Notes: a model not told the origin generated them from the letters alone. 64,000 bases of DNA from an uncultured Gemmatimonadales bacterium (GCA_963730915.1 CAVSTR010000004.1:609114-673113), one strand, 5' to 3'. Counted from the stretch's first letter, positions 1,649-63,896 are shown. Numbers and translations are program-made.

Positions 1649-1670
1649 GCCTCGCGGCGGTCTGCGAGGC
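1649..1670 (-). terminator. possible terminator hairpin abutting the ligase stop codon
   Basis: GCCTCGC (1649-1655) pairs with GCGAGGC (1664-1670) around an 8-nt loop. The minus-strand RNA continues GCUCGUUUUCC. The U-run is weak. Confidence 0.35.
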
Positions 1671-9751: not shown

Positions 9752-9790
9752 AAGTGGATAGTCTAGACTCTTGTCCTCGGTGGAGCAGCA

Positions 9791-13504: not shown

Positions 13505-14623
13505 TCAGCGTTGATTCAGTGCTCGAATCAGTTGCTCGTTCGTGGGATGTCGCTTGAGCTCGATCAGCAGATCGTTCATCGCATTGATAGGAGTCATACC
13601 CGCAATCCTCTGACGAAGCACCCGGCTGGCAGCCAGTGCCTCCTCACTCAACAACAGCTCCTCCCGGCGAGTGGCGCTCGCTACGAGATCAATGGCCGGG
13701 AAGATGCGCCGCTCGGCCAGCTCCCGGCTCAGCACCAGCTCGCTATTGCCGGTTCCCTTGAACTCCTCGAAAATCACTTGATCCATCTTGCTGCCGGTAT
13801 CCACCAGTGCCGTGGCTATGATGGTCAGGGATCCTTCGCTCTGCGAAGGGTCGATCCTGCGCGCACTTCCAAGAAACCGTTTCGGCTTTTCAAGGGACTG
13901 CGCGTCTAGGCCGCCCGAGAGAGTCCGGCCGGTGCCTTTCTCGACCGTATTGTAGGCCCGGGCAAGCCGCGTCAGGGAATCCACAATCAACACCACATCA
14001 CCGCCCATCTCGACCCGCCGCCGGGCTCGCTCCAGCGTCAGCTCGGCGATAGAAACGTGCTGTTGCGCCGGATTGTCGAAGCTGGAAGCGATGACTTCGC
14101 CCACACCCGCCGCCTCCATCTCGAACACCTCCTCTGGCCGCTCGTCTACCAGCAGGATGAACAGGTCGGATGCGGGATAATTGGCGTTCACCCCCTGGGC
14201 GATCGCCTGCAGCACCATGGTCTTACCGGCTTTTGCCGGGGCGACGATGAGTGCCCGCTGGCCTTTGCCCAAAGGACACAGCAGATCGATTACCCGATTG
14301 GTAGGATCTGAGGGTGCGGCCCCCGCCGAGGCCTCGAGTCGGAGCGGTTCATTGGGGTGTACGGCGCCTAAACGGCTGAATTCGGGCCGCTGACCCAGAA
14401 TTTCAGGAGATTTGCCTAGGACGGCAGACACTGTTTCGAGTGACGCGCTCTTGCCTTTGCTCGGCGCCCTGACTGATCCGGCGATCTCGTCGCCCGTTCG
14501 AAGGCCATACTGACGAATGAGCCGCTCCCCGACGTGCACGTCACCCTGGGAAGGTAGATAGCTGGTCTCGCGTCGCCGAAGAAAGCCACTGCCGCGTCCG
14601 GCCAGCTCGAGCACGCCGAGCAT
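13505..14623 (-). CDS. rho: transcription termination factor Rho, short form lacking the N-terminal helix bundle
   Basis: 372 aa. Begins at the CSD-like RNA-binding domain (LELAGRGSGFLR, compare E. coli LEILQDGFGFLR near residue 52). Walker A APAKAGKT, Walker B LLVDERPEEV, RLARAYN, ATALVDTGSKMDQVIFEEFKGTGNSEL. Confidence 0.9.
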   Translation of the reverse strand: MLGVLELAGRGSGFLRRRETSYLPSQGDVHVGERLIRQYGLRTGDEIAGSVRAPSKGKSASLETVSAVLGKSPEILGQRPEFSRLGAVHPNEPLRLEASAGAAPSDPTNRVIDLLCPLGKGQRALIVAPAKAGKTMVLQAIAQGVNANYPASDLFILLVDERPEEVFEMEAAGVGEVIASSFDNPAQQHVSIAELTLERARRRVEMGGDVVLIVDSLTRLARAYNTVEKGTGRTLSGGLDAQSLEKPKRFLGSARRIDPSQSEGSLTIIATALVDTGSKMDQVIFEEFKGTGNSELVLSRELAERRIFPAIDLVASATRREELLLSEEALAASRVLRQRIAGMTPINAMNDLLIELKRHPTNEQLIRALNQR

Positions 14624-15239: not shown

Positions 15240-16553
15240 ATGACGACGGTTGCCACACCGAGGGGAGTAGATCGGGAAGCCTTAGCATCTCAGCTGGCCG
15301 AAGCTCGAGCCAGGACTCTTATGCTGGTTCGTCCGCTTACCGATGCCGAGCTGCGGTTGCAGCACGATCCACTCATGAGCCCGATCCTCTGGGACTTGGG
15401 CCACATCGCGCACTTCGAGGAACTCTGGCTGACCCGGAACCTCGATGGTCCGGTCGAGTTCGTCGAAATGCCGGGGTTGTTCAATCCATTCGAGCATCCC
15501 AGAAGCGAACGCGGGTCACTGCGGCTGCCGACTTTTACAGAATGTCGCGAGGTGATGGACGAAATTCGTTCGCGCGTTCTGGAGCGGCTCGACGACACCG
15601 AGCCTGATGACACCAATCCGCTGCTGCGACAGGGATATGTCTATAGGATGGTCCTGCAGCACGAGTATCAGCACAACGAAACGATCCTGCAGACGCTTCA
15701 GCTCAAACAGGGGAATCCGTACACACCCATCGATCGATTCGCTCCTCCGAAGGAACACGCAGAGATCCCGCGTGACATGGTCCGCTTTCCCGGCGGAGAG
15801 CTGGACATGGGAACCGATGATCGTTCGGCTGCCTATGACAATGAACGGCCGCGGCACCGAATCGAGCTGGCGCCCTTCTGGATCGATCGCGCGCCCGTGA
15901 CCAACGGCGAGTTCGCTGGTTTCATCGAGGCGGGGGGATACTCCACCCGAGCGTACTGGTCCGACGCGGGTTGGGGTTGGGTGAAAACATCAGGGGCGCG
16001 GTCGCCGATGTACTGGACCAGAGCCGGCGATGGTTGGCACAGCCGCTCGATGGATCAGGCCGGTGCGATCGAGCCCGACCATCCGGTCTGCCACGTGTGT
16101 TTCTATGAAGCCGAGGCGTTTGCCCGCTATGCGGGCAAGCGGCTTCCCACCGAGTTCGAGTGGGAAGCGGCTGCCTCCTGGAGTCCCTCCGGATCCAAGC
16201 TCACTTATCCCTGGGGCGAGCAGTTGCCGACCAAGGATCTCGCCAACCTGGATCAGCTGGCGTTTGGTACCCGAGCGATCGGGAGCTACCGGGAGAACGT
16301 CTCACCGCTGGGCTGCTACGGCATGATCGGAGACGTGTGGGAGTGGACCTCGAGCGACTTTCACGGCTATCCCGGGTTCCAAAGCTTTCCATATCCGGAG
16401 TACTCGGAGGCGTTCTTTGGAAGCGACTACAAGGTTCTCCGCGGTGGATCATGGGCCACCAGGCCAGGAGCGATTCGCAACACATTCCGCAACTGGGATT
16501 ACCCGATCAGGCGGCAGATTTTCAGCGGCTTCCGGTGCGCTCGAGATGACTGA
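15240..16553 (+). CDS. egtB: ergothioneine biosynthesis sulfoxide synthase EgtB (DinB_2 + FGE-sulfatase domains)
   Basis: 437 aa. DinB-type His ligands (WDLGHIAHFEE, LQHEYQHNET). C-terminal FGE-like domain (GNVSPLGCYGMIGDVWEWT, PYPEYSEAFFG, RGGSWAT). Confidence 0.85.
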   Translation: MTTVATPRGVDREALASQLAEARARTLMLVRPLTDAELRLQHDPLMSPILWDLGHIAHFEELWLTRNLDGPVEFVEMPGLFNPFEHPRSERGSLRLPTFTECREVMDEIRSRVLERLDDTEPDDTNPLLRQGYVYRMVLQHEYQHNETILQTLQLKQGNPYTPIDRFAPPKEHAEIPRDMVRFPGGELDMGTDDRSAAYDNERPRHRIELAPFWIDRAPVTNGEFAGFIEAGGYSTRAYWSDAGWGWVKTSGARSPMYWTRAGDGWHSRSMDQAGAIEPDHPVCHVCFYEAEAFARYAGKRLPTEFEWEAAASWSPSGSKLTYPWGEQLPTKDLANLDQLAFGTRAIGSYRENVSPLGCYGMIGDVWEWTSSDFHGYPGFQSFPYPEYSEAFFGSDYKVLRGGSWATRPGAIRNTFRNWDYPIRRQIFSGFRCARDD

Positions 16554-17556
16554 AATTCCTTCGAGCCGCTGGTCACGGACGACTCGGGGCGACAGGAGCG
16601 ACCTCGCAGCGCGTGCCTACAAGCAGCCGAATTCGCGCATGCTCGCCGAGGTTGCCGCCGGTCTGGCCGCACCCCAGAAGGAGCTGTCGCCCAAGTATTT
16701 CTATGACCATCGCGGCTCCGAGATCTTCGAGGAGATCACCAGGCTGCCCGAGTATTACCAGACGCGAACCGAGCGGGCGATCCTCGATGCCTGGATGCCG
16801 TCTCTGATCGCCGGGCTGGGTACGAGAGCCCTGGTCGAGCTCGGTGCCGGCAGTGCGGAAAAGAGCCGGCTCATCATCAGCGCCATGCGCGCCGCTGGAA
16901 CCGCCGAGCTCTACGTGCCGATCGACGTCAGCGCCAGCTTTCTCAATCAAACCGCGGCGCAGCTGCGGCGTGAGTACCCGGGTCTCTCCGTCGAGCCGGT
17001 CGTGGCCGACATTGCCGAGGAGCTGGGCCGGCCCGCCGGCTTACCTCATCCCGCGATATATGCGTTCCTCGGCGGCACCATCGGCAATTTCTATCCGCCT
17101 GCAGCCATCCGACTCCTGAGCCGGGTCCGGGCGGCCATGAATGCTGAAGACCGACTTTTGCTCGGCGTCGACTTGCGGAAGGACACAGCTCGGATCGAGC
17201 TGGCCTACAACGATTCGCAGGGGGTAACCGCCGCGTTCAACCGGAACATGCTCTTGGTTTTGAATCACGAGTTGGGCGCCGATTTCGACCCGGAATTATT
17301 CGGACACCGTGCGTTCTATGAGCCGGTCACTCACCGGATCGAGATGCACCTTGTGTCACAGCTGGAGCAGGAAGTGAGAATTCCAGGCATTGGCCAGATC
17401 TGCTTTGCACCGGGCGAATCGATCCGTACCGAGATCAGCTGCAAGTACGATCGTCAGAGTGTGGCCGAGCTTTTCGAGCCTGCGGGATTTCAGATCGAGA
17501 CGTGGAGATCCGATCCTGACAACCTGTTTGCTCTCGTCGTGGGGTCACCCACGTGA
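16546..17556 (+). CDS. egtD: L-histidine N-alpha-methyltransferase EgtD
   Basis: ORF 16417..17556 trimmed to ATG 16546 (8-nt overlap with egtB). YFYDHRGSEIFEEITRLPEYYQTRTERAIL and LVELGAGSAEKS are EgtD hallmarks. Confidence 0.85.
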   Translation: MTEIPSSRWSRTTRGDRSDLAARAYKQPNSRMLAEVAAGLAAPQKELSPKYFYDHRGSEIFEEITRLPEYYQTRTERAILDAWMPSLIAGLGTRALVELGAGSAEKSRLIISAMRAAGTAELYVPIDVSASFLNQTAAQLRREYPGLSVEPVVADIAEELGRPAGLPHPAIYAFLGGTIGNFYPPAAIRLLSRVRAAMNAEDRLLLGVDLRKDTARIELAYNDSQGVTAAFNRNMLLVLNHELGADFDPELFGHRAFYEPVTHRIEMHLVSQLEQEVRIPGIGQICFAPGESIRTEISCKYDRQSVAELFEPAGFQIETWRSDPDNLFALVVGSPT

Positions 17557-18809
17557 CCACGCTGACCCGCGGGATGCTGGAGGTAGACCTGGAGGAGCGG
17601 GTCTTCGGCGGCGCGCCGGCCGCTTCACTCGCACCGCGCAGGCTTGGCGCCGAGGTAGAGCTCATTCCCGTCGAGGCAGGAACCGGCCGGCGCTGCTGCA
17701 TCGACTCGGAAGGTGCTCTCAGCACGCTTCCCTTCCTTCGCAGATACGGCAGCAGGCAGTCCTGGAGAGAGAGTCTCACCGGGAAAGGAACTCCCTGTTT
17801 CACGCTGCCAACAGGCGGCACGCTGACGTTCGAGCCGGGAGGGCAGCTCGAGTACAGCTCTCCGCCGCTTCGTTCCGCTTCCGCGCTGCTGGCAATTCTG
17901 CGCGCGGTGATTGTTCCGTTGCGCGCCGCTGCGGCCGATGAAGGAATCGATCTGCTGGCCGTAGGACTCGATCCTTACAACTCGGAAGAGCGAGCGCCGA
18001 TGCTCATCCAGGCCCGGCGCTACGAGCGAATGGCGGAGTATCTCGCGCGCCGAGGTCCGGCGGGGGCGCGCATGATGCGCCAGACGGCGGCTTTTCAAAT
18101 CGGCGTCGATTTCGATGATGAACCGTGGCTGCGGTGGAGAGTGCTCAATGCGGCGGCACCGTTCTTTGTGGCGATCTTCGCCAACTCTCCGATGTACGCC
18201 GGCGAGCGCACCGGGCATCAGAGCTCCCGAGCCGACGTATGGCGCACCTTGGATCCCACTCGGACGGGATTGCCATATGACGAGGATGCCCCGGTACCGG
18301 CCTATCTCGATTTTGCGCTGGATGCCCCGGCCATTCTCCTTCCTACCATCGAGGGCGAGCACAGGCCCTTCGGCGAGTGGCTGGTGCGTGCCGATCCGAC
18401 CCCGGAGGAATGGCAGGATCACCTGAGCACGCTCTTCCCTGAGGTGCGTCCGCGGGGTCATCTGGAGGTCCGTTCGGCCGACGCGGTTGCACCCGAGTGG
18501 TATGCGGCTCCGCTCGCTCTCGCCGCAGGCATCCTCTACGACTCGCGGGCATTGAGAGCTGCCGCCGATCTGCTGCCGTCGCCGGATCTCGCACTCTTGA
18601 AACGCGCTGGAGAGCTCGGGGTGCACGATGCCGATATTGCCCGCACTTCTTCCGATCTCTTCGAGCTGGCGTTGGCGGGCTGCGCTGGTTTAGGCGCCGC
18701 CTATTTTCATTCTTCGGATCTGGAGGAGGCCCGGGCCTTCTTCGACCGGTACACCCGCCGGGGGAGAGCGCCCGCTGACGACCTTCTCCGGAACGCCATC
18801 GCCGCTTAG
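17553..18809 (+). CDS. egtA: glutamate-cysteine ligase family 2 protein (EgtA-like)
   Basis: 418 aa, GTG start in a GTGA overlap with egtD. GCS2-type sequence (GAEVELIPV, TFEPGGQLEYSSPP, FPEVRPRGHLEVRSAD). Confidence 0.7.
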   Translation: MTTLTRGMLEVDLEERVFGGAPAASLAPRRLGAEVELIPVEAGTGRRCCIDSEGALSTLPFLRRYGSRQSWRESLTGKGTPCFTLPTGGTLTFEPGGQLEYSSPPLRSASALLAILRAVIVPLRAAAADEGIDLLAVGLDPYNSEERAPMLIQARRYERMAEYLARRGPAGARMMRQTAAFQIGVDFDDEPWLRWRVLNAAAPFFVAIFANSPMYAGERTGHQSSRADVWRTLDPTRTGLPYDEDAPVPAYLDFALDAPAILLPTIEGEHRPFGEWLVRADPTPEEWQDHLSTLFPEVRPRGHLEVRSADAVAPEWYAAPLALAAGILYDSRALRAAADLLPSPDLALLKRAGELGVHDADIARTSSDLFELALAGCAGLGAAYFHSSDLEEARAFFDRYTRRGRAPADDLLRNAIAA

Positions 18810-20729: not shown

Positions 20730-22202
20730 GTGAGCTCCGGCAGACCTTCGGCCAGGAATGTCGACCTGAGCATTGGTTGCGTTACGCTCTTCCTCCTGCC
20801 GTTCGCTGGAGTTGGGCTCTTCACCGCGGCGATGGCGGTGCAGCGGCTCGCCGCCCACAACTGGACTGAAGCGCTCTTCTTCGCGCTGTTCGCCCTGACA
20901 TTCGGTGGTGTCGGAATTGGCGGCATAATCGCAGCGCTGGCTGGTCGCCGGACGCTGAAAGCGCAGGAACTGCTTCAGGCGAGCCACCCCGATACACCCT
21001 GGCTGTGGCGGCAGGATTGGGCCTCCGGGCACATTACCGATTCCAGCCGCAGCACCATGATCGGCACATGGCTGTTCGCCACCCTGTGGAACCTGATCGG
21101 CTTTCCTACAGGGTTTCTTTCGGTTCGCGCTGCCCTGAGAGAAGGCAGACCGGCCGCGTTCCTCGGGCTGCTATTTCCCATCGTAGGCGTTGGGCTGGTG
21201 GTCTGGGCCATCAGAACAACTCTCCGTCACTGGACATACGGTGTCTCCCGCCTCGAGCTTGCCACCGTGCCTGGCGTGGTTGGCAGGAGCCTCATCGGCA
21301 CGGTCCGCGCGCCTTCCATGATTCAGGCGGAGCAGGGGTTCGACCTGAGTTTGACATGTGTTCGCCGGATGACCCATGGAGGCGGGAAGCAGAGATCCAC
21401 ATCCGAAAGCATCCTGTGGCAGGACGTGCAGCGGGTTCCAGGCCGACCGTTCCGGGCGCCCGCCCGAATGGAAACGCACATCCCGGTAGCCTTCCGCATC
21501 TCGGCAGACGCGCCCTCCTCCGACGCCAATAACCCGGCAAATCGGGTAGTCTGGCAGCTCCAGGTCTCGGCCGACGTGCCCGGGGTGAACTACGAGTCAC
21601 GTTTCGACGTCCCCGTCTTTCGAACCCCAGCCAGCGAACAGCCGCTTTCACCCGAGGAGACTCGGCTCACTCAGGTTGCCGATATCACTGTATATCAGCA
21701 GCCCGCCGATTCTCGCATTCTGGTGAGTGCGACACGCCGGGGCACCGAGATTCTGTTTCCCGCCGCTCGCAACCTGGGCGTGGCGGTGAGCCTGACGGTG
21801 TTTCTCCTGATATGGCTGGCAGGGGTGGGTCTTCAGATCTACTTCGGCGCGCCGCTGATTTTTCCGATCGTCACCGGACTCTTCGCGCTGCTTCTTGTGG
21901 TCGTGGTATTGGACTTATGGCTCCAGGTATCACGCATCAGAGTGACTGCGGGGTCGGTTTCGTGGGCCACGGGATACATCGTCCCCGGGCGCGAGCACAT
22001 GATCCCAGCCTCGGAGATCGCCGAAGTCAGCGCCACAACCGGCATGCAGGCAGGCAACAGGGTGTACTACGATGTCGTGATCGTTCGGAAATTCGGAAAG
22101 AAGATCAAGGTGGGTCACTCGGTTCGCGACAAGCGCGAGGCCGATTGGCTGGCAGGTACGATTAAGAAGGCGTTAGGCCAGGAGCCGGGAGTTAGGAGCT
22201 AG
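20730..22202 (+). CDS. polytopic membrane protein, unknown function
   Basis: 490 aa. About 4 N-terminal TM helices, a ~170-aa soluble middle, 2 more TM helices (LGVAVSLTVFLLIWLAGVGL, LIFPIVTGLFALLLVVVVLDLWL), and a ~90-aa C-terminal domain. The last codons and the TAG stop lie inside the heptamer repeat arm. Confidence 0.6.
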   Translation: MSSGRPSARNVDLSIGCVTLFLLPFAGVGLFTAAMAVQRLAAHNWTEALFFALFALTFGGVGIGGIIAALAGRRTLKAQELLQASHPDTPWLWRQDWASGHITDSSRSTMIGTWLFATLWNLIGFPTGFLSVRAALREGRPAAFLGLLFPIVGVGLVVWAIRTTLRHWTYGVSRLELATVPGVVGRSLIGTVRAPSMIQAEQGFDLSLTCVRRMTHGGGKQRSTSESILWQDVQRVPGRPFRAPARMETHIPVAFRISADAPSSDANNPANRVVWQLQVSADVPGVNYESRFDVPVFRTPASEQPLSPEETRLTQVADITVYQQPADSRILVSATRRGTEILFPAARNLGVAVSLTVFLLIWLAGVGLQIYFGAPLIFPIVTGLFALLLVVVVLDLWLQVSRIRVTAGSVSWATGYIVPGREHMIPASEIAEVSATTGMQAGNRVYYDVVIVRKFGKKIKVGHSVRDKREADWLAGTIKKALGQEPGVRS

Positions 22203-22267
22203 GAGCTGGCAACTATTCAGCGCGTGCGGCTTGCACCTCCCAGCTCCCAGCTCCTGGCTCCTGACTC
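22178..22267. repeat. inverted arrays of heptamer [AG]GGAGC[TC] forming a hairpin between convergent genes
   Basis: Left arm 22178-22209 (CCAGGAGCCGGGAGTTAGGAGCTAGGAGCTGG). Right arm 22236-22267 (CCTCCCAGCTCCCAGCTCCTGGCTCCTGACTC) is its imperfect reverse complement. 26-nt spacer. Confidence 0.85.
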
Positions 22268-30101: not shown

Positions 30102-30203
30102 TGGCGGGGCAGCGGGGCAGCGGGGCTGCTAGTCAGCAACGGGTCACGACGGGCAGCGCTGGCGTCGACTGTCCCGCCGCCCCGCTGCCCCGCTGCCCCG
30201 CTG
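30102..30203. repeat. inverted octamer arrays (CAGCGGGG)3 / (CCCCGCTG)3 filling the fdhA-fdhB intercistronic region
   Basis: Left arm 30102-30125 TGGCGGGGCAGCGGGGCAGCGGGG. Right arm 30180-30203 CCCCGCTGCCCCGCTGCCCCGCTG. 54-nt spacer. By eye the arms pair at 22 of 24 positions. Confidence 0.85.
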
Positions 30204-34631: not shown

Positions 34632-34689
34632 CTACCGCCGTGCCGCCCATACCGCCTTACCGCCTTACCGCCCTAGTGACGAACGTCAC
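34632..34689. repeat. octamer array (TTACCGCC-type, 5 units) followed by palindrome GTGACGAACGTCAC
   Basis: CTACCGCC GTGCCGCC CATACCGCC TTACCGCC TTACCGCC (34632-34672), then GTGACGAACGTCAC (34676-34689). Located in a divergent promoter region. The unit matches the right arm of the 49.97 kb element. Confidence 0.8.
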
Positions 34690-46180: not shown

Positions 46181-46226
46181 TGATGGTTCTTCCGAGGATC
46201 AGATTACCGAGCATTGTCATCCTGCA

Positions 46227-46338
46227 GCGCCGCTGCCCCGCTGCCCCGCTGCCCCGCTGCCCCGCTGCCCCGCTGCCCCGCTGCCCCGCTTACCCGCTGC
46301 CCCGCTGCCCCGCTGCCCCGCTTACCTGCTCGCCCGCT
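46227..46338. repeat. tandem octamer array (GCCCCGCT, about 14 units, 10 perfect) between cphB and the cphA paralog
   Basis: Perfect units start at 46235, 46243, 46251, 46259, 46267, 46275, 46283, 46299, 46307 and 46315. Variants are GCGCCGCT, TACCCGCT, TACCTGCT and CGCCCGCT. Preceded by a TGTCATCCTG box at 46215. The minus-strand transcript would carry (AGCGGGGC)n. Confidence 0.9.
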
Positions 46339-47185
46339 TCGCCGTCTTGTCCCCTGTTTCGGTGCCTGCCCGAATGGCCAAAGCGGGCGCCGCCGCGGCT
46401 ACCCGGGTGTGGAGATTGAAGGTTGAGCCGTGATCCAGGATGTGCAACTTCAGCCCGATCAGACATATGGCGTCGTTCTTCCGCACCCGCGCCATGGACG
46501 AGAACTCGATGCCCGACGGGTCGACGATCGTGAGCGCTCCACTGCCGACCACTTCGAGAGTCTCATCGGGTGCAATGAACGCCGCCGTGTTCTCGTCCAG
46601 TCCGATCCCGATGGCGAACGGGTTGTAGGCCAGTGCCGTGAGCAGCCGGCCGAGGCGGTCGCGCTGGCGGAAGTGCTGGTCGATGATGACCCGGTTCGTG
46701 AGCCCCAGCCCCGGTGCCAGCGTGACGATCCTTGCTCGCGGGGACGCGCCTTCCTTTCCGAAGGCGATCATGTGCTCGCACAGGAACGCCGCTCCGGCCG
46801 ATGTCCCCGCGATGTGCATCCCCTCGACGTTTCGCTGACGCATCGCCTTGGCCACCGCCGTCCCACCGATCATGGTGCTCAGCCGAAGCTGGTTGCCGCC
46901 GGTGAGAAACACGCCGTCCACCTTGTGCAGGACCTCGAGCCACTCGGGCCGTTCGCAGTCGGCGCGGCTGGCGATGGGCAGGGCCTTCGCGTCGCCGACA
47001 CCGAGGCTCTTGAACAGCTCCTCATAGCGCCCGCCGGTATCGGTGAGCATGGACGCGGTCGGGATGATGGCGATGCGGCCTTTCGCACCCCCACAGAGCG
47101 TGGCGAAGCGTCGCAGAATGTGGATGTCTCCGATTTTCTCCTCGGCGCCGCCCACGGGGATGATGTAGCCTCTGGATTTCGCCAC
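46322..47185 (-). CDS. cphB: cyanophycinase (S51 peptidase)
   Basis: 287 aa. YIIPVGGAEEK, nucleophile context IAGTSAGAAFL, VIIDQHFRQRDRLGRL. The last codons overlap the octamer array. Confidence 0.9.
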   Translation of the reverse strand: MAKSRGYIIPVGGAEEKIGDIHILRRFATLCGGAKGRIAIIPTASMLTDTGGRYEELFKSLGVGDAKALPIASRADCERPEWLEVLHKVDGVFLTGGNQLRLSTMIGGTAVAKAMRQRNVEGMHIAGTSAGAAFLCEHMIAFGKEGASPRARIVTLAPGLGLTNRVIIDQHFRQRDRLGRLLTALAYNPFAIGIGLDENTAAFIAPDETLEVVGSGALTIVDPSGIEFSSMARVRKNDAICLIGLKLHILDHGSTFNLHTRVAAAAPALAIRAGTETGDKTAKRASR

Positions 47186-47212: not shown

Positions 47213-48388
47213 CTATGCCCGTTTGACTTGTTCGAAGCCGCCCGTAATAACCGCACGACCATCTCGCACGTGCCACCGGCCGCGTGCCATTACATCCTCG
47301 ACTGCACCATCAGACCCCAGCACCACCAGATCGGCATCTGCCCCCGTCTCGAGGTGCCCTTTGCGCGGCAGGAGCAGAAGCCGAGCCGGATTGGAGGTAA
47401 AGGCGGGTAGCACTCGCTCCAGCGGCTGACCGCGGGCCAGCAGCTCCTTCAACGTCTCGGCCATCGAAGAGGGCCGGCCCACGTCCAGCGCAACCACCCG
47501 CCCGTCGTCGTCGAACTCCGGGAAACACCCGCCGCCGTCCGAGCTCACCGTCACTCGAGTTGGAGGCAGACCCTTGTCGTAGTAGCGAAGGAGCGCGTCC
47601 GCCGCCGACCATGCGTCTTCGCCGTCCTCGACGGGAAACGCCGTGATGTCGATGGTACAGCCCTCCTGCGTGAGCTCCATCGCTTCCTCGAACAGCCGCT
47701 TCTTCCGGTTGACGTGCGTCGGGTTGAACACGGCCGCCGGCACCTCGGTCCGCTCGATCGCCTCCCGGACCAGCTCCAGGCCGCGCTCTCCATCTCCGAC
47801 GTGCAGGTGCACGATACCGGCCTTGCCCGCCATCAGTCCGCCCACATGCGCGTCGCCCGCCACGCGGACCAGCTCATCGAACGTCGGCTGTGACGATCGA
47901 TGGTCGCTGATCGCCAGCTCGCCCACACCGAGGATGAGATCGATCAGCACGATGTCCCCCCGCACGCTGCCGGTGACCGTCACGGGAGGCACGTGATAGC
48001 CGCCGGTATAGCAGTAGGCGCTGAGACCTTCCGCTATCAGGCCGCGCGCGGTCGTCACCAGTTCGGCCGTCGTGCGCACCGTGTCGTCGGTGCCGAGCAG
48101 ACCGATCACCGTCGTAACTCCGCCGGTGGTGAGACGGCTCAGACCCAGCGGTGGAACCCGCGTCTCCGGTCCGGCTTCCCCTCCGCCACCAGTCAGGTGG
48201 ACGTGACAGTCTACCAGCCCCGGAATGACTCGGCGTCCCCCGAGATCGTACTCCTCGACACCGTGTGCCGCGGTGAAGGACGGGGCGGTCTCACCCACCC
48301 AGACGATCGTCTCGCCTGCCACGAGCAGGTGTCTGTGACCCTGTGATTGCGGAGCATACAGGTCGGCGTTCCGCAGAAGCTGAAGCAA
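47213..48388 (-). CDS. iadA: isoaspartyl (beta-aspartyl) dipeptidase
   Basis: Long ORF 47213..49003 trimmed to in-frame TTG 48388 (LQLLRNADLYAP...). GLVDCHVHLTGGGGEAGPETR parallels the E. coli IadA HVHLIGGGGEAG motif. The upstream part of the ORF is a translation of the heptamer array. Confidence 0.8.
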   Translation of the reverse strand: MLQLLRNADLYAPQSQGHRHLLVAGETIVWVGETAPSFTAAHGVEEYDLGGRRVIPGLVDCHVHLTGGGGEAGPETRVPPLGLSRLTTGGVTTVIGLLGTDDTVRTTAELVTTARGLIAEGLSAYCYTGGYHVPPVTVTGSVRGDIVLIDLILGVGELAISDHRSSQPTFDELVRVAGDAHVGGLMAGKAGIVHLHVGDGERGLELVREAIERTEVPAAVFNPTHVNRKKRLFEEAMELTQEGCTIDITAFPVEDGEDAWSAADALLRYYDKGLPPTRVTVSSDGGGCFPEFDDDGRVVALDVGRPSSMAETLKELLARGQPLERVLPAFTSNPARLLLLPRKGHLETGADADLVVLGSDGAVEDVMARGRWHVRDGRAVITGGFEQVKRA

Positions 48389-48407: not shown

Positions 48408-48500
48408 GTCTGGCGTCTAGTCGTCTGGCGTCTGGCGTCTAGCGTCTGGCGTCTCGGCGTCTGGCGTCTGGCGTCTGGCGTCTGGCGTCTGGCGTCTGGC
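48408..48500. repeat. tandem heptamer array (GTCTGGC, 13 units) in the iadA / egtB-like divergent region
   Basis: 10 perfect GTCTGGC units plus variants GTCTAGTC, GTCTAGC and GTCTCGGC. The last six are perfect and contiguous (48459-48500). A TGTCACCCCGAGC box follows at 48559-48571. Confidence 0.9.
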
Positions 48501-48590
48501 CACCAACTTACCCCGGCGCGGTGCCCGCTGCTATCGTAGAGGATGGCCGGGTGATCCCTGTCACCCCGAGCTACCAGAACCGGCGGAAGA

Positions 48591-49804
48591 TTGAGCACAC
48601 ATCCCGACCAAGGCCGCATGCCCACCCTGCAATCGAGCACTCTCTCGCGTAAACGGCTGGCCGAATTGCTGGCCGAGGCACGAGCGCGCACCGTTCTCCT
48701 GGTGAGCCCCGTGTCCGAAGTGGGCTTGCACGCTCGGCCCGACGAGGCTGTTGGGTCGGTGTTGCAGGAGCTGGGGCAGATCCTCCGATTCGAGCTCGAG
48801 TGGCTGGCACAGGAGCCCGAGGGCGGCGGCGCCGAGTCGCTGCCGAGCTTCGAGTCGTACGACGAGTGGTTCGACGCCATGCTGGAGATTCGGGAGCGAT
48901 CCCTGGAGCAGCTCGAGTCGCTCCACGACCTGAGCTCCTCTCCGAGTATGGAAGATCGCTGCCGGCTGGTTCTGGACCACGAGTACCGTCGCGACGAGGC
49001 CATTCTCGAGACGCTGCAGCTCCAGCCGGATTATCGCGCGCCTCGGCGTGTCCTCCTGCCTCGCGGCCGCCGTCTCGCCGATCCCGGCATCATGGCGCGC
49101 TTTCCCGGCGGAACCGATCTCGATCGGAGCGAGCTGCCGAGTCACGGGTGTGGCCGGACGAGGCGCCGGTCGACAAGGTCCACCTGGAGCCGTTCTGGAT
49201 CGATGTCATGCCGGTGACGAACGGCGACTTCGTCACCTTCATGGCCGCCGGCGGATACGTGAGCGCCGACTACTGGTCCGATGAAGGATGGGAGTGGGTC
49301 CGCAGCAATGGGGTGCAGACCCCGCGGCACTGGTTCTGGGATGAAGGAGCGTGGTGGACCCGCTGGATGGACAGACCCATGCTGCTCGACCTCACCTGCC
49401 CGGTGAGCTGCGTGTCGCGCTACGAGGCCGAAGCCTTCGCCAGGTTCGTGGGGAAGAGACTGCCGACCGAGCTCGAGTGGGAAGCGGCCGCGACATGGGA
49501 TCCCGAGAGTCAGGACCGGCGGCACTATCCCTGGGGCAGCATGGCGCCATCGCTCAACGTCGCCAATCTCGATCAGCTCGCGTTCGAGACCGCCGAGGTC
49601 GGTGCCTTTCCCGGCAACCTCTCGCCGGTCGGCTGTTATGGAATGATCGGTGATCTCTGGGAATGGACCGCGAGCCCGACGGGTGTCCTCCGTGGCGGCT
49701 CCTGGGCGACCCGTCCCGGCGCCGCGCGAGTCACGGCCACGAAGTGCGCGTCACCATCTGCTCGCCACGTCTTCAGTGGGTTTCGTTGTGCGCATGATGG
49801 GTGA
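48591..49804 (+). pseudogene. degenerate EgtB/FGE-sulfatase paralog (frameshifted, Fe ligands lost, internal deletion)
   Basis: The N-terminal DinB-like part is in ORF 48591..49217 and the FGE-like part in ORF 48800..49804. The frames switch near 49117-49130. LGQILRFEL and HEYRRDE replace LGHIAHFEE and HEYQHNE of egtB. About 26 aa (DFHGYPGFQSFPYPEYSEAFFGSDYK) are missing between WEWT and LRGGSW. Confidence 0.7.
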
Positions 49805-49991
49805 AGGCGGTAGGGCGGTATGGCGGTAGGTAGTGCGGCTGGGAATGGTTGAGTGATTGTCATCCCGAACGTAGTGAGGGATCGCTCCATCTGACGTCCG
49901 CACGACCATGGCCGCTCAGACGCCTCGTTAAGCGATCCCTCGCTTTGCTCGGGATGACATCCTTTTCCTAGCTTACCGCCTTCCCGCCTAC
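49804..49991. repeat. composite palindromic element: octamer arms + inverted TGTCATCCCGA REP boxes, spanning a whole convergent intergenic region
   Basis: Left arm 49804-49838 (AAGGCGGT AGGGCGGT ATGGCGGT AGG...). IR-L 49858-49886 TGTCATCCCGAACGTAGTGAGGGATCGCT. IR-R 49931-49959 AGCGATCCCTCGCTTTGCTCGGGATGACA. Right arm 49972-49991 (CTTACCGCC TTCCCGCC TAC). The arms touch the stop codons of both flanking genes. Confidence 0.85.
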
Positions 49992-50797
49992 TTCTCCAAT
50001 CCCGCAGGCACTCCACCCGGAAACTGCTTCTTTATCGCATCCTCGATCCGGGCGACTCGATTCTCCGGATTCGGATGGGTGCTGAAGAACTCCGGCGGCC
50101 GTCCTCCCTGCGAGCTCTCGTCCAGGATCTTCATCAGCCCGATCATCGAACGCGGATCGTAGCCCGCTTCGGAGGCGAGCCGCACGCCGAGCTGATCCGA
50201 TTGCAGCTCGTCCTGTCGGCCGAACCGCATCGTGACCAGTTGACCGATCAGTGCTGCGACTGCAGCCGAGCCCTGGGTCGATGGATTGTTGGGATCGTAG
50301 GTGGCGAGTACCGCCGCGCCGGTGAGTCCTTCGGTGAGCTGCTGCTTGGCGATGTGCTCGGCGCCGTGACGCGCCAGCACGTGCCCGATCTCGTGGCCCA
50401 GCACTCCGGCCAGCTGTCCTTCGGACTCGAGCCGGCGAACCAGTCCCTCGGTGATCGCGACCTGCCCACCCGGCAGAGCGAACGCGTTGATCGTCTCGGG
50501 ATCGTCGAGCAGGTGGAACTCGAACTTGTACGGGCTCTGCGCCGCGGCGGTGCGCGACACCAGCCGCTCGCCCACGCGGTCCACCAGTGCCTGCGCCTCG
50601 GGGCTCGGATCCAGCCCGCCGAACTGCTGCATCATCTCCGGTGCCGCCTGGAGACCGAGCGCTACTTCCTGTTCGGGAGTGATCCCGGCGACGTGCTGCT
50701 TTTCTTCGGTGATCGGATTGAACGCGCTCTTACTGAAGTATCCGATGACGGAGATGACCGCTACGATGAGGGCCATGACGAGCCGGCTGCGTGACAC
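49988..50797 (-). CDS. M48-family metallopeptidase (periplasmic BepA/YcaL-like)
   Basis: 269 aa. N-terminal anchor LVMALIVAVISVIGYF. Zinc motif HEIGHVLARH with downstream ELQSDQLG. Confidence 0.8.
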   Translation of the reverse strand: MSRSRLVMALIVAVISVIGYFSKSAFNPITEEKQHVAGITPEQEVALGLQAAPEMMQQFGGLDPSPEAQALVDRVGERLVSRTAAAQSPYKFEFHLLDDPETINAFALPGGQVAITEGLVRRLESEGQLAGVLGHEIGHVLARHGAEHIAKQQLTEGLTGAAVLATYDPNNPSTQGSAAVAALIGQLVTMRFGRQDELQSDQLGVRLASEAGYDPRSMIGLMKILDESSQGGRPPEFFSTHPNPENRVARIEDAIKKQFPGGVPAGLEK

Positions 50798-52598: not shown

Positions 52599-53444
52599 TA
52601 GCAGTAACACCGCAGTGCCAATAGATTTACGCTTCCTTGAAACCACGAATATCTCCGGAACGACCCCGGCCGCCGGCGGGACGAACCAGCACCATGAAGA
52701 CGACCGAGACGCGAGTGAAGCAGAATCCCATATCTACCGACGTGGTGCCCTACCGCCCGGAGACCATCGAGCCCAAGTGGCAGGCGCGATGGGCCGAGCG
52801 GCACACCAACGAGCCCGACCTCGATCGCGCGGTCCAGCCCTTCTACAACCTCATGATGTTCCCCTACCCCTCGGCCGAGGGGCTGCACGTGGGGAACATG
52901 TTCGCCTTCACCGGCAGCGACGTGTATGGCCGGTTCAAGCGGCTCCAGGGCTATCGACGTGTTCGAGCCGATCGGCTACGACGCGTTCGGCATCCACAGT
53001 GAGAACTACGCCATCAAGGTGGGCATCAATCCCGCCGAGCTGATTCCGCGGAACATCACCAACTTCCGGCGCCAGCTCAAAAGCATCGGCGGCATGTTCG
53101 ACTGGCGTCACGAGCTCTCGACCACGGATCCGAAGTATTACAAGTGGACCCAGTGGATCTTTCTGCAGCTGCTGAAGGCGGGCAAGGCGTACAAGAAGGC
53201 GGCCGCGGTCAACTGGTGTCCCAAGGACCAGACCGTGCTGGCGAACGAGCAGGTCATCGACGGCCGCTGCGAGCGCTGCGGCACCACCGTCGAGCAGCGG
53301 ACGCTGGAGCAGTGGTTCTTCCGCATCACTGAGTATGCCGACCGCCTGTTGGCGAATCTGGACGACAAGTCGAAGATGGACTGGTCCGAGAGCACCACCC
53401 TGGCGCAGCGGAATTGGTTGGGGCGTTCGAGGCGCGGAGTATTT

Positions 53445-53567
53445 GGAGGGTCGGAGGGTCGGAGGGACGGAGGGACGGAGGATGTCACCCTCGGCGTAGC
53501 GAAGAGGCAGCGGGGCAGCGTAGGAGAAGATGTCACCCTGACCCCTCGCGAAGCGAGGGGGAGGGGC
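53445..53567. repeat. octamer array GGAGGG[TA]C (4.5 units) plus two TGTCACCC REP-like boxes, inside leuS
   Basis: Array 53445-53482. Boxes start at 53483 (TGTCACCCTCGGCGTAGCGAAGAGGC) and 53531 (TGTCACCCTGACCCCTCGCGAAGCGAGGGG). AGCGGGGCAGCG lies between them. It translates as GGSEGRRDGGCHPRRSEEAAGQRRRRCHPDPSRSEGEG. Confidence 0.85.
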
Positions 53568-53950
53568 CGAAACCCCGCGCGCCAGAGATCAAAGTCTTTA
53601 CGACGAGGCCCGACACCGTCTTCGGCGCCACCTTCATGGTCCTCGCTCCCGAGCACCCGCTGGTCGACTCGTTCACCACTCCGAAGCAGAAGGCGGAAGT
53701 GAACGCGTATCGCCAGGCGGCGACGTCGAAGGACCTGGTCTCCCGCAAGGTGGGCGACCGGGAGAAGACCGGCGTCTTCACCGGCGGCCACGCGATCAAT
53801 CCGGCCACCGGCAAGCCGATCCCGGTCTGGATCGCCGACTACGTGCTGATGGAGTACGGCACCGGTGCCATCATGGCGGTGCCCGGCCACGACCAGCGCG
53901 ACTTCGAGTTCGCTCAGAACGCTTCGAGTCTGCCGATTCTCAGAGTAGTC

Positions 53951-53995
53951 TGTCACCCTGAGCGGAGCGAAGGAGCCGAAGCTCCGCTTGAAGCC
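53951..53995. repeat. REP-like box inside leuS (TGTCACCCTGAGCGGAGCGAAGGAGCCGAAGCTCCGC)
   Basis: Hairpin GCGGAGC / GCTCCGC. Translated in frame as VCHPERSEGAEAPL, in the variable linker after HDQRDFEFA. Confidence 0.75.
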
Positions 53996-54807
53996 GCATA
54001 CGTAGACAACGACGACGGAGTCCTCTGCAACTCCGGCCAGTTCGACGGCCTGAAAGTCCCCGAAGCCAAGCGCGCCATCACCGCCTGGCTCGCCGAGCGC
54101 GGGGCGGGGAAGGCCGTGGTCAACTACCGCCTGCACGACTGGTGCATCAGCCGCCAGCGGTACTGGGGCCCGCCGATCCCCATCATCTACTGCGACGAGC
54201 ACGGCGCCGTCCCGGTACCCGAGAAGGATCTCCCGGTCGAGCTGCCGGTGATCGACGACTTCCAGCCGGACGACAGCGGCATCTCGCCGCTGGCCCGGCA
54301 CGAGAGCTGGTACCACGTCCCATGTCCCGTCTGCGGCAAGCGCAGCCGGCGCGAGACCGACGTCAGCGACACCTTCCTCGACTCGGCCTGGTACTACCTG
54401 CGCTATCCCAGCACCGACTTCGACGACCGTCCCTTCGATCAGGGGCGGACCCGGCGGTGGCTGCCGGTCACCACCTACATCGGCGGCAACGAGCACGCGG
54501 TGCTGCACCTGCTCTATTCGCGCTTCATCGCGATGGTGCTGCAGGAGCTCGGCATGGTCCACTTCGACGAGCCGTTCCGGAAGTTCCGGGCGCACGGGCA
54601 CATCGTGAAGGATGGGTCCAAGATGTCGAAGAGCCACGGCAACGTGGTCGTGCCCGACGAGTACATCGCGCGCTGGGGCGCCGACACCTTCCGGATGTAT
54701 CTCATGTTCCTGGGCCCGTTCCAGGAGGGCGGCGACTTCCGTGACGAGGGCATCGCCGGCCCGCGCCGGTTCCTGGAGAAGGTCTGGAATCTCGTGAGCG
54801 ACGCCCA

Positions 54808-54935
54808 GCAGTCATTGCGAGAGCCTGCCCCGAGCAATCAAACGAGGGGCCGCGAAGCGACCGAAGCAATTCCGCGGGCTGGCACGGAGCCGCAGTCATT
54901 GCGAGCCCCCGACGCGGGCGCGGCAATCCCCCGGC
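54808..54935. repeat. pair of GCAGTCATTGCGAG...GCAATC REP-like boxes inside leuS
   Basis: GCAGTCATTGCGAG at 54808 and 54892, each followed by ...GCAATC. In frame they add about 30 aa (QQSLREPAPSNQTRGREATEAIPRAGTEPQSLRAPDAGAAIP) relative to Thermus-type LeuRS. Confidence 0.75.
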
Positions 54936-55421
54936 AGCCGCAGGTCGACCTCTCGCACGCCGTCCAGACCAAGCGCCATCAGACGGTGAAGAAGGTGACA
55001 GAAGGTCTCGAAGACCTGCGCTACAACACCTCCATCGCGGCGCTGATGGAACTGGTGAACACCCTTCGGGCGGAGAACAGCTGGAATCAGCAGCTGATCG
55101 AGGAGCTGATCGTCATGCTCGCTCCCTTCGCCCCCCACTTCGCCGAGGAGAACTGGGAGCGGCTGGGGCACGACGGCTCGATCTTCGATGCGCGCTGGCC
55201 GGGCTGGGACGAGCGGCTGACGGTGGAGGACTCGGTCGAGATCGCGGTGCAGGTGAACGGGAAGACCCGGTCGAAGGTGTCGGTGCCGCGCGATGCAGAG
55301 CAGGGTGCTGTGGTGGCAGCCGCGCAGGAGGATGCGGCGGTGCGCCGGTTTACCGAGGGCAAGGAGGTTGGGAAAGTGGTGTACGTGCCGAATCGGCTGC
55401 TGAATTTGGTGGTCGGCTAGG

Positions 55422-63585: not shown

Positions 63586-63813
63586 GAGCTGGGAGCTGGG
63601 AGCTAGGAGCTAGGAGCAACGTTGTCATCCTGAGCCCTTCGACTTGCTCAGGGTAAACTCCGCGAAGGTCTCTCCGAGAGGTAGATCCGGGCTCGGACTT
63701 GGACGAGAGGTACCGGTGGGTTCTGCGGAGGCACTGCGATCCCAATCACAGAACCAGATTCCCGCGTTTCGAGCTCCCAGCTCCCAGCTCCCGGCTCCTA
63801 GCTCCCAGCTCCC
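63586..63813. repeat. composite palindromic element: heptamer GGAGCT[GA] arms flanking a TGTCATCCTGAGC-containing core
   Basis: Left arm 63586-63617 (GAGCTGG GAGCTGG GAGCTAG GAGCTAG GAGC). Box TGTCATCCTGAGC at 63623. Right arm 63771-63813 (GAGCTCC CAGCTCC CAGCTCC CGGCTCC TAGCTCC CAGCTCC C) is the reverse complement of the same heptamer family used at 22.2 kb. Confidence 0.85.
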
Positions 63814-63896
63814 ACGCGGGTGATCCATACCACGGTCCTTCCTACTGGTGCGCACAACCATTCGAGTGCACCGGCGCTTACACACCAGGAGGATCT

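Follow-up and report, generated by a model that had tools for sequence, protein, structure and literature searches.

We describe the spacer between two convergent genes, encoding an FGE-sulfatase-domain protein and an M48 peptidase, in a 64,000-nucleotide stretch of DNA (hereafter the window) from an uncultured Gemmatimonadales bacterium (GCA_963730915.1 CAVSTR010000004.1:609114-673113). The whole of this 188-bp spacer is a nested palindrome. We consider it probable, at about 60%, that two superposed and independently evolving repeat systems have together produced a dimer of Ssn-type hairpin repeats inside a hairpin of tandem arrays, with a probable role at the ends of transcripts. The outer layer is a convergent pair of G-rich GGCGGTAN octamer microsatellite arrays, each starting at the stop codon of the gene that it follows. 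The inner layer is a head-to-head dimer, about 100 nucleotides long, of a hairpin repeat tagged with TGTC or CGTC, that is, a CGTC-type repetitive extragenic palindrome (REP) or Ssn-related motif (SRM). Such a dimer would be the noncoding partner of Ssn proteins, which are small single-domain GIY-YIG nucleases that act on single-stranded DNA, and would have entered the loop of the array hairpin at a later stage, an order of events that orthologous sites suggest.

The organization of the spacer is summarized in Table 1. An initial annotation of the window had described two concentric inverted repeats of different kinds, arrays outside and hairpin boxes inside, filling the convergent spacer, and all of the features so described are present at the coordinates that it gave. 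The left array (period 8, 3.1 copies according to TRF) begins 1 nucleotide beyond the TGA of the FGE-sulfatase gene (49802-49804), and the opposite arm overlaps the TAG of the M48 gene, which reads CTA on the plus strand (49988-49990) and fills one slot of a right-array unit. The right array is the reverse complement of the left units, and each array is G-rich in the sense direction of its own gene. Within the arrays, the left box consists of a TGTC head (49858-49861), a stem-loop (ATCCC-GA-AC-GTA-GT-GA-GGGAT, 49862-49882), and a conserved C (49883). The right box is complementary to it at 25 of 29 positions and reads TGTCATCCCGAGCAAAGCGAGGGATCGCT on the minus strand; thus, both heads face outward, and the boxes form a head-to-head dimer with 44 nucleotides between them.

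The structure exceeds what chance would produce. The left-box 29-mer occurs once in the window (0 expected), and the double octamer GGCGGTANGGCGGTA, with up to two mismatches, occurs six times against 0.48 expected, a number reached in 0 of 100 shuffles. The spacer folds as a single long hairpin on either strand (-100.9 kcal/mol, z = -5.5, and -101.7 kcal/mol, z = -7.8), and both the outer and the inner pairings are predicted in the minimum-free-energy (MFE) fold. A consensus scan found no σ70 promoter-like site at the spacer. Rfam returned subthreshold matches only, to the plant microRNA families MIR1437 and MIR1858 (22-27 bits against gathering thresholds of 137-168), and we treat these as a generic resemblance among long hairpins. 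Both families are derived from MITEs, the miniature transposable elements with inverted repeats.

The orthologous sites separate the two layers. In most Gemmatimonadales relatives whose M48 protein is 69-90% identical to that of the window, tandem arrays lie 3' of the M48 stop codon, generally two in inverted orientation, beginning at that codon. Their unit differs among genomes (Table 1), and the arms are usually complementary to each other, L024 being the exception. The stop codon falls within an array unit in several genomes, and the final codons of the gene have been changed or extended by the array in L006 and L022. What lies between the arms varies independently. Box dimers of the subfamily seen in the window were found there and in L004 and L005. 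A CCTC-headed subfamily occupies the site in L006, L014, L024, and L066 and a long variant does so in L008; L009, L017, L021, L022, L029, and L039 have array hairpins with no box, and L001, L007, and L010 have empty-like sites. The initial annotation had proposed a single element with tandem-oligomer terminal inverted repeats. The orthologs in which arrays lack boxes, carry boxes of other subfamilies, or flank an inverted inner segment argue otherwise: the arms are not the termini of a box element. Arms in relatives without boxes are also an outcome that the initial annotation had itself named as refuting its proposal. As judged from these comparisons, the arrays appear to be the older and more general occupant of the M48 site and the boxes a secondary one, apparently acquired repeatedly.

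The inverted inner segment is that of L004. The window is collinear with L005 over dimer and array, whereas L004 matches only in the inverted orientation (47 of 51 positions, including 10 nucleotides outside the box), from which it follows that the inner segment has been flipped, plausibly via recombination between the inverted arrays. The heptamer GAGTGAT (49851-49857), which forms the last 7 nucleotides of the 19-nucleotide spacer, moves together with the left box in both L004 and L005. The capacity to fold is retained at filled sites: each of the 16 filled spacers at orthologous sites folds more stably than its dinucleotide shuffles (z = -2.9 to -9.7), whereas the empty-like spacers of L001 and L010 fold no better than shuffles (z = -0.4) and that of L007 does so weakly (z = -2.5).

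Two further features of these sites deserve mention. After the M48 stop codon at the "empty" site of L001 (10811-10822) lies GGGCCGTACCGC, which is one mismatch away from the palindrome GGCGGTACCGCC, the remnant expected if two GGCGGTAC arrays had collapsed. The L001 site may therefore be a deletion scar rather than a site that was never occupied. Also, a conserved leader of about 45 nucleotides (CCAATGGCCCGAGTC..GGTGAGAGTAACTTCTC..GCATG) precedes an isoaspartyl-dipeptidase-like amidohydrolase gene downstream of the M48 spacer in many relatives (L001, 10826-10870; L005, L006, L007, L008, L013, and L058), and it could be a promoter or a leader RNA element.

To place the outer layer in context, we used TRF to survey the window together with 41 Gemmatimonad loci fetched via the M48 protein (533 kb in all), with 586 kb of DNA from other phyla for comparison, and counted arrays with at least three copies of a period of 7 or 8. 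The Gemmatimonad DNA contained 113 such arrays and the other phyla 20 (about 212 and 34 per Mb, respectively). By period, the Gemmatimonad arrays numbered 78 (period 8), 35 (period 7), 16 (period 6), and 9 (period 9). They fall into at least 15 unit families, mostly octamers, with GCGGACGG, GCGGGGCA, GCGGTAAG, GCGGGTAA, and GCGGTCAG recurring, and GCGG is present in 57% of units but in only 17% of 8-mers drawn at random from intergenic DNA. Of 152 arrays, 50 had a strict inverted partner no more than 450 nucleotides away, against 7 in a composition-matched control, and in 45 of 48 pairs the G-rich arm was the 5' arm. Arrays are anchored at gene ends: among 149 adjacencies between an array and a gene 3' end, 25 arrays begin -1 to +3 nucleotides from the stop codon and 44 within 10 nucleotides, whereas distances to gene starts are broadly spread (median, 82 nucleotides). 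The stop-codon junctions listed, TAGgcggggcagcgggg and TGAggcggtaaggcgg among them, have the sense strand as their G-rich strand. Most likely, we infer, the arrays arise and turn over by slipped-strand mispairing. The idea that the units serve to supply stop codons in all frames was rejected as a general rule, a stop triplet being present in only 34 of 152 units.

Arrays of this general type have been described in other bacteria. Rehm et al. 2015 (PLoS One, PMC4692102) reported convergent arrays of G-rich heptamers, GGGAATC in Xanthomonas and GGGGAYT in Nostoc; for the Xanthomonas repeats, G-quadruplexes or R-loops that form on the sense strand past the stop codon have been proposed. Mrazek 2007, as cited in PMC4679880, noted an excess of tandem units of 5-11 nucleotides, especially heptamers. 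Like those arrays, the long simple sequence repeats (LSSR) of Mrazek, and the short tandemly repeated repetitive (STRR) sequences of cyanobacteria, the Gemmatimonad arrays are intergenic and built of short units in tandem, of a length not divisible by three. They share with the arrays of Rehm et al. the location of the G-rich strand on the coding strand, 0-50 nucleotides from the stop codon or overlapping it, the typical number of three to five units, and the occurrence of convergent pairs (plus then minus strand) able to form stem-loops, of which there are 70-75 per genome. They differ in that the period is mainly 8 rather than 7, in that many units (GCGGACGG, GCGGGGCA, GCGGTAAG, and others) are found per genome instead of one consensus, in that the unit changes between orthologous sites, in that many units lack the four G3 tracts of a canonical quadruplex (the unit of our locus, GGCGGTAN, has GG tracts only and no four tracts of G3 or more), and in that they often host dimers of CGTC-type REPs. 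A search of the literature on tandem repeats in Gemmatimonadetes and on the box sequence itself found nothing relevant.

We turn to the inner layer. With the pattern TCATCC[CT]GA[AG]CG.AG[CT]GA[AG]GGAT, 37 boxes were found in the Gemmatimonad loci and none in the 586 kb from other phyla, and they often formed head-to-head dimers with boxes 50-75 nucleotides apart. The stem consists of ATCCC/GGGAT, a tandem G.A, 2 bp, and a 3-nucleotide loop. In a set of 99 boxes, whose head is HGTC by construction because the pattern fixed GTC and left the first base free, that first base was T in 74, C in 22, and A in 3. Directly 3' of the palindrome, 96 of the 99 had a C, including both boxes of our locus. 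Compensatory changes were present at five stem positions, among them pair 2 (T-A 84, C-G 14), pair 3 (C-G 59, T-A 37), pair 5 (C-G 49, T-A 48), and inner pair 1 (G-C 88, A-T 9). The two boxes of the locus themselves differ by a compensated inner pair, A-T in one and G-C in the other, and hence each small hairpin is maintained in its own right. Boxes can also be amplified in tandem, as is evident from L016, where three tandem partial copies (GCTCGGGATGACAGATCGGC x3) are found at 13764-13830 with no arrays.

This box has the hallmarks of two described repeat families, and the suggestion in the initial annotation that the inner repeat is REP-like is borne out. Chenal et al. 2025 (Nat Commun, PMC11893778) showed that repeats called NTS or SRM flank single-domain GIY-YIG genes (ssn), that SsnA recognizes the hairpin in single-stranded DNA only, with cleavage just upstream of the head, and that binding and cleavage by SsnA depend critically on the three bases preceding the palindrome and on the C following it. 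The Gemmatimonad boxes share with these repeats (as in the Neisseria dRS3/NTS, CGTCATTCCCGCGMAVGCGGGAATCYRG) an unpaired HGTC head, a palindrome that starts with A-T followed by T-A, and a C immediately after it, all in a hairpin of about 21 nucleotides; they too are probably present in hundreds of copies per genome, and copies flank a gene of about 95 codons for a GIY-YIG protein in inverted orientation. They differ in having a tandem G.A/A.G internal mismatch and a 3-nucleotide loop, so that the published search pattern fails to find them (see below), in having a conserved tail of about 20 nucleotides (CGCYCAATGAGACGTCC), and in occurring as dimers nested between tandem arrays; the main text of Chenal 2025 (PMC11893778) does not refer to Gemmatimonadales. 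The second family, the CGTC-tagged REPs of Di Nocera, De Gregorio & Rocco 2013 (BMC Genomics, PMC3733652), often has TGTC or CCTC as head, has stems of 8-9 bp with a complementary A/T start, occurs mainly as head-to-head dimers 3' of genes, and is said to "apparently lack a dedicated transposase." Our boxes agree with it in their TGTC and CCTC head variants, in stems of 8-9 positions with an A/T start, in their head-to-head dimers, and in their location downstream of genes, between unidirectional or convergent open reading frames. The described families, in contrast, are mostly alphaproteobacterial, with loops of 4-5 nucleotides and a CCA tail, and Di Nocera 2013 (PMC3733652) reports neither a dedicated enzyme nor an association with tandem oligomer arrays. 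Thus, although the initial annotation knew of no described class for the structure, both layers are of described kinds, the outer matching Rehm-type arrays (PMC4692102) and the inner the CGTC REP/SRM repeats (PMC3733652, PMC11893778). What appears to be unreported in the literature searched is the nesting of arrays and box dimers.

The Xanthomonas heptamer GGGAATC (PMC4692102) has the same sequence as the 3' stem arm of the Neisseria NTS hairpin taken together with its critical C (..GCGGGAATC..; PMC11893778), and a GGAGGGAC array at 53445 of the window is similar to the 3' arm of boxes of the local type (GAGGGATC). The resemblance could be fortuitous, or it could point to an origin of some arrays in box arms.

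The nature of the enzyme that acts on the boxes is suggested by a relative. In L025 a gene of about 95 codons (9344-9670, minus strand), whose product has a GIY-YIG domain (PF01541, E = 3.4e-12), is flanked on both sides by box units in inverted orientation. This Ssn-type element (box, GIY-YIG gene, inverted box; 9298-9743) adjoins a box dimer (9779-9875), and element and dimer are both nested between degenerate inverted arrays 3' of the stop codon of an MCP gene (9175-9962). The 45-nucleotide units that flank the GIY-YIG genes of L025 and L083 align with the arms of the dimer in our locus, including the tail CAATGAGACGTCC, of which the left tail in the dimer center (CCATCTGACGTCC) is a homolog. 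The L025 gene is the only one of its kind in the 1.1 Mb of M48-derived sequence (the window and L001-L082). A metagenome scan with its product yielded 80 loci, 77 of them with usable flanks, and a flanking inverted repeat with a score of at least 30 was found at 48 of the 77, as opposed to 0 of 77 shuffles. These flanking repeats mostly begin with TGTCAT and come from loci with GC contents of 32 to 69%. Along with the Pfam hit, a weak match in PDB to the UPF0213 protein 1ZG2 (E = 0.0012) is in keeping with a possible place in the Ssn family (CDD cd10448); NCBIfam returned no family for the protein.

The initial annotation had looked instead to a REP-associated tyrosine transposase (RAYT) or an IS200-like enzyme. 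The REP doublets called REPINs are said, since the work of Bertels and Rainey in 2011, to be mobilized by HUH tyrosine transposases. Our boxes do resemble the REPIN/RAYT system and bacterial interspersed mosaic elements (BIMEs; Nunvar 2010, PMC2817692) in that two inverted hairpin repeats form a longer hairpin, in that abundant nonautonomous copies accompany a rare protein gene flanked by matching repeats, and in being extragenic and 3' of genes. Their head, however, is TGTC or CGTC (TGTC in both boxes of the locus) and not GTAG, the associated gene is of the GIY-YIG type and not a Y1 HUH transposase, and none of the 60 predicted proteins of the window matched RAYT/Y1_Tnp or another transposase. 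The cognate enzyme is likely a small GIY-YIG nuclease, and the boxes of our locus would be acted on by an Ssn nuclease whose gene lies elsewhere in the genome.

The nesting of boxes within arrays is not random. Among 55 boxes we found 10 head-to-head dimers, and nine of the 10 had a period-7 or -8 array within 60 nucleotides outside the dimer, whereas the figure for random 100-nucleotide intergenic segments was 9.4%. The arrays beside dimers were G-rich on the left in seven of seven cases and C-rich on the right in four of four. The initial annotation had asked whether its pattern (a 7-8-mer array, a TGTCAYCC box, and the complement of both) recurs, and it does, both among these dimers and in a second nested composite in the window, at 63586-63814. 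At the same time, arrays far outnumber boxes (152 and 55). Because several box subfamilies share an array site and because of this excess of arrays, it is more economical to regard array hairpins as preferred landing sites.

What might such a structure do? Being very stable and able to form on either strand, the hairpin would most likely act as a bidirectional transcript-end structure without a U tract, contributing to termination, to protection of the 3' end, or to both, whereas in single-stranded DNA each box would be a hairpin of the type that an Ssn nuclease binds and cuts just 5' of the head. The structure is, like an intrinsic (bidirectional) terminator or an mRNA 3' stabilizer of the REP type, a GC-rich hairpin located right after convergent stop codons and kept at the orthologous site despite sequence turnover. 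It differs from an intrinsic terminator in the missing U/T tract, in its length of about 180 nucleotides, which is far longer than canonical, and in that arrays are also found upstream of genes.

Several observations weigh against this interpretation. A consensus scan found no T tract after the hairpin and no terminator-like site. Divergent intergenic regions, in which transcripts are not expected to end, had arrays in 23% of cases, as compared with 41% of convergent and 26% of tandem regions, figures that are approximate because the genes were called with a crude codon-bias caller (with arrays masked). About two thirds of the arrays lack a strict inverted partner, and one array lies inside the coding region of leuS, which argues against a purely terminator role. 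A role as terminator only is thus weakened by arrays in divergent spacers and inside leuS, by the many unpaired arrays, and by the lack of a T tract, and a function in termination or at 3' ends is in any case one that we infer. In L004, the closest syntenic ortholog, the M48-side array is almost gone, and the pairing of the outer arms is therefore not strictly conserved. As regards the inner layer, the 64-kb window contains no GIY-YIG or Ssn gene, and the published degenerate SRM pattern, HGTCWYN(0-2)YYVSBRHN(0-5)WNVSBRGN(0-2)RNCYNB, has 0 matches in the window on both strands; by our reading the boxes miss it at the stem position of the G.A mismatch.

Of the alternatives, the one that retains the most weight, possible if not probable, is a neutral one: arrays would be products of replication slippage extending up to stop codons, dimers would be selfish or domesticated repeats, and the hairpin would be a by-product with no role in expression. 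In its favor are the complete turnover of the unit between orthologous sites, the unequal copy numbers of the arms (10 and 4 in L006; 4 and 9 in L039), the presence of arrays in every intergenic class and even within leuS, and the empty-like sites of L001, L007, and L010. Slippage does not readily explain, however, the strict polarity of the pairs (G-rich 5' and C-rich 3' in 45 of 48) or the threefold higher density of arrays in convergent than in divergent spacers, both of which need a directional cause. Nor would unbiased slippage be expected to give a narrow period (8, then 7) and a GCGG core, or to leave the arms complementary as the unit changes.

It is doubtful that array pairs and Ssn-type dimers constitute one functional system, with inverted arrays extruding hairpins as specific landing pads for the propagation of Ssn repeats, or with arrays being built by repair synthesis at the 3' ends left by Ssn cutting to either side of a dimer, in the manner of a telomere-fusion scar. 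Unlikely, too, is a coupling of the layers in which arrays are repair scars of repeated Ssn cleavage 5' of box heads in single-stranded DNA, the G-rich strand's 3' end being freed to either side of a head-to-head dimer and slippage synthesis (possibly involving Ku/LigD) having added G-rich units as in a telomere-to-telomere fusion. The polarity is as this scheme would have it, the 3' end of the G-rich strand pointing to the box head both beside dimers and in the pairs overall, and arrays do adjoin dimers far beyond expectation. SsnA, moreover, cuts upstream of the head and in single-stranded DNA only (Chenal 2025, PMC11893778), and genes for Ku and LigD primase-polymerase are located at 1670-4568 of the window. 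Nevertheless, most arrays and array pairs have no box nearby, including those of the array-only orthologs, and array units are most regular near the stop codon and degenerate near the box, whereas growth at the inner end would produce the reverse. Also, the occurrence of differing box subfamilies at the same array site fits insertion into a preexisting array hairpin.

A further alternative, which we consider distinctly improbable, is that the arrays act as single strands, through a G-quadruplex or R-loop on the sense strand, through loading of Rho on C-rich antisense transcripts, or through Chi-like protection of gene ends. Many arrays are indeed without a partner and lie directly after stop codons with the G-rich strand as sense strand, units such as GCGGGGCA and GGAGGGAC have tracts of G3-4, the Xanthomonas and Nostoc units form G-quadruplexes in vitro (Rehm 2015, PMC4692102), and Rho is encoded in the window (13505-14623). 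The unit of our locus, on the other hand, with its GG tracts, faces a complementary arm with which it pairs in the MFE fold, and units such as TAGTCGT, GTGAACG, and AGGAGCT are unable to form quadruplexes. The Chi-like and Rho-loading ideas agree with the polarity as speculation only. The Ku and LigD genes, which together with a gene for an ATP-dependent ligase make up a nonhomologous end-joining cluster, and the Rho gene bear on these alternatives but prove nothing.

Finally, it is barely credible that the whole is a composite mobile element (a MITE or foldback-like transposon) that moves as a unit, for although the architecture recurs and eukaryotic foldback elements likewise have inverted termini made of tandem repeats, each locus has its own array unit but boxes that are conserved, the orthologous position keeps its arrays even as boxes are gained, lost, inverted, or replaced by another subfamily, arrays without boxes are in large excess, no target-site duplication is seen at either layer, and no transposase was found in the window. 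A likeness to MITEs is confined to the inner dimer, whose arms align with the repeats that flank the GIY-YIG genes of L025 and L083. No direct repeats were found outside the box heads or outside the arrays; the related flanks are inverted. A separate idea, that the arrays are footprints of a transposon that duplicates 8 bp, was rejected, as the arrays are inverted and not direct and the units differ between loci. In sum, the observation made in the initial annotation is confirmed, and its interpretation is supported in part: the structure is nested, REP-like, and recurrent, but it is not a single element of a new class.

Table 1. Features of the spacer and of other repeat loci in the window, and array units at orthologous M48 sites. 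Positions are those of the window; for orthologous sites the loci are named instead.
Feature	Position or loci	Strand	Sequence or evidence
FGE-sulfatase-domain gene	49148-49804	+	Pfam PF03781, E = 2e-42
Left arm, outer layer: G-rich octamer array	49806-49838	+	GGCGGTAG GGCGGTAT GGCGGTAG + degenerate unit GTAGTGCGG; TRF
19-nt spacer	49839-49857		
Left box, inner layer: TGTC-tagged REP/SRM-like hairpin	49858-49886	+	TGTCATCCCGAACGTAGTGAGGGATCGCT
44-nt dimer center	49887-49930		two unit tails, tail to tail
Right box	49931-49959	-	AGCGATCCCTCGCTTTGCTCGGGATGACA
12-nt spacer	49960-49971		TCCTTTTCCTAG
Right arm, outer layer	49972-49991	-	CTTACCGCCTTCCCGCCTAC; read on - strand, GTAGGCGGGAAGGCGGTAAG
M48 peptidase gene, convergent with FGE-sulfatase gene	49988-50797	-	Pfam PF01435, E = 3.8e-38
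Second nested composite	63586-63814		(GAGCTGG/GAGCTAG) x4.6; 5 nt; long-variant box TGTCATCCTGAGCCC...CGCGAAGG (63623-63668); ~100 nt; (AGCTCCC) x6.1
Array-only hairpin between convergent genes, without box	22180-22267		AGGAGCT x4; 29-nt loop; inverted CTCCCAG/CTCCTGG array
Array-only hairpin between two codirectional - strand genes	30104-30203		GCGGGGCA x2.9; 42-nt loop; CTGCCCCG x4.4
Single array directly after TAA of Peptidase_S51 gene	46230-46339	-	GCGGGGCA, 11.6 copies
Single array of locus unit, divergent intergenic region	34633-34672	-	GGCGGTAA on - strand, 4.9 copies
Unit at M48 site	window, L004, L005, L006 (10 copies), L008, L066		GGCGGTAN
Unit at M48 site	L009		GAGTCAC
Unit at M48 site	L017		TAGTCGT
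Unit at M48 site	L014		GGCGGTCG
Unit at M48 site	L018, L020		GCGGGGAA
Unit at M48 site	L021		GTGAACG
Unit at M48 site	L022		GTAAGCG
Unit at M48 site	L029		GGACGGTC
Unit at M48 site	L039		GACGGAAG

The upstream neighbor of the spacer had been called egtB-like. Its product has a bare FGE-sulfatase domain and, according to Pfam, no DinB_2 domain, and the gene is therefore not egtB. The real egtB (DinB_2 plus FGE-sulfatase), egtD, and egtA are located at 15321-18809 of the window, and the likeness is therefore one of domain only.

The window as a whole has about a dozen intergenic arrays of period 7 or 8, which include three further inverted pairs (22180/22237, 30104/30169, and 63586/63772) and a single array of the GGCGGTA unit of our locus (34633-34672). 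The box of the last pair belongs to a subfamily that matches the 62-nucleotide inverted repeat flanking a GIY-YIG gene in L136. The long array after the Peptidase_S51 gene is followed by a box remnant (46215-46229). In the orthologous spacer of L004 (14452-14511) a different unit (GGGTAAGC x3) is followed by an intact box, to which the remnant in the window is oppositely oriented; this spacer is a second case of unit turnover at a fixed position. A heptamer array (GTCTGGC, 13 copies, 48408-48500) is situated just upstream of the start of an amidohydrolase gene (47213-48388, minus strand) and before the gene at 48561-49145, and has neither an inverted partner nor a GCGG core.

The leuS gene, for leucyl-tRNA synthetase (52694-55420), is in three frame pieces. 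An insert at 53445-53566, located where a variable loop separates the conserved motifs NWLGRS and VFTTRPDT, consists of an octamer array (GGAGGGTC/GGAGGGAC x4.6) and two box-like sequences (TGTCACCCT), and two reading frames are open through it. A 1-nucleotide frame shift at about 52955 suggests assembly indels. Either repeats have been inserted in frame within an essential gene, or the gene is broken. Another box-like sequence, TGTCACCCTGAGCGGAGCGAAGGAG, is present within the leuS coding region at 53951-53975.

The array phenomenon extends beyond Gemmatimonadales. Inverted heptamer pairs immediately follow the M48 stop codon in a Pirellulales metagenome-assembled genome (MAG; L055, 10793-11044, GAAGGCA x12 / TTCTGCC) and in a "Cytophagia" MAG (L035, 10802-10911, CGTGTAA / CACGTTA), a lone array of the related unit CGTTACA is present in a second "Cytophagia" MAG (L045, 2673-2695), and 20 kb of a betaproteobacterial MAG contain nine period-7 or -8 arrays, with units such as GGGTGAT and CTCATCC (L076, 12317-17221).

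Taken alone, the locus that we have described is ordinary for its lineage, and its interest lies in what it reveals about that lineage. Gemmatimonadales represent a major and poorly studied soil phylum, and in their DNA short arrays of G-rich octamers, of strict polarity and with stop codons as anchors, number on the order of one per 5 kb. The puzzle posed by the arrays of Xanthomonas and Nostoc is thereby extended to a new phylum, in which position and pairing persist while the sequence turns over. Likewise, hairpin repeats associated with Ssn are abundant in Gemmatimonadales too, as a variant that the published search pattern misses. On the practical side, array and box regions yield spurious open reading frames and can break assemblies and gene calls, as with the leuS gene of the window, which is interrupted by one. 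The nonrandom nesting of boxes in arrays could help to explain how Ssn-associated repeats choose their sites. If array pairs and Ssn-type dimers were in truth one functional system, this would provide a first mechanistic handle on how Ssn-associated repeats spread and also a handle on why short G-rich arrays point away from gene ends in several phyla.

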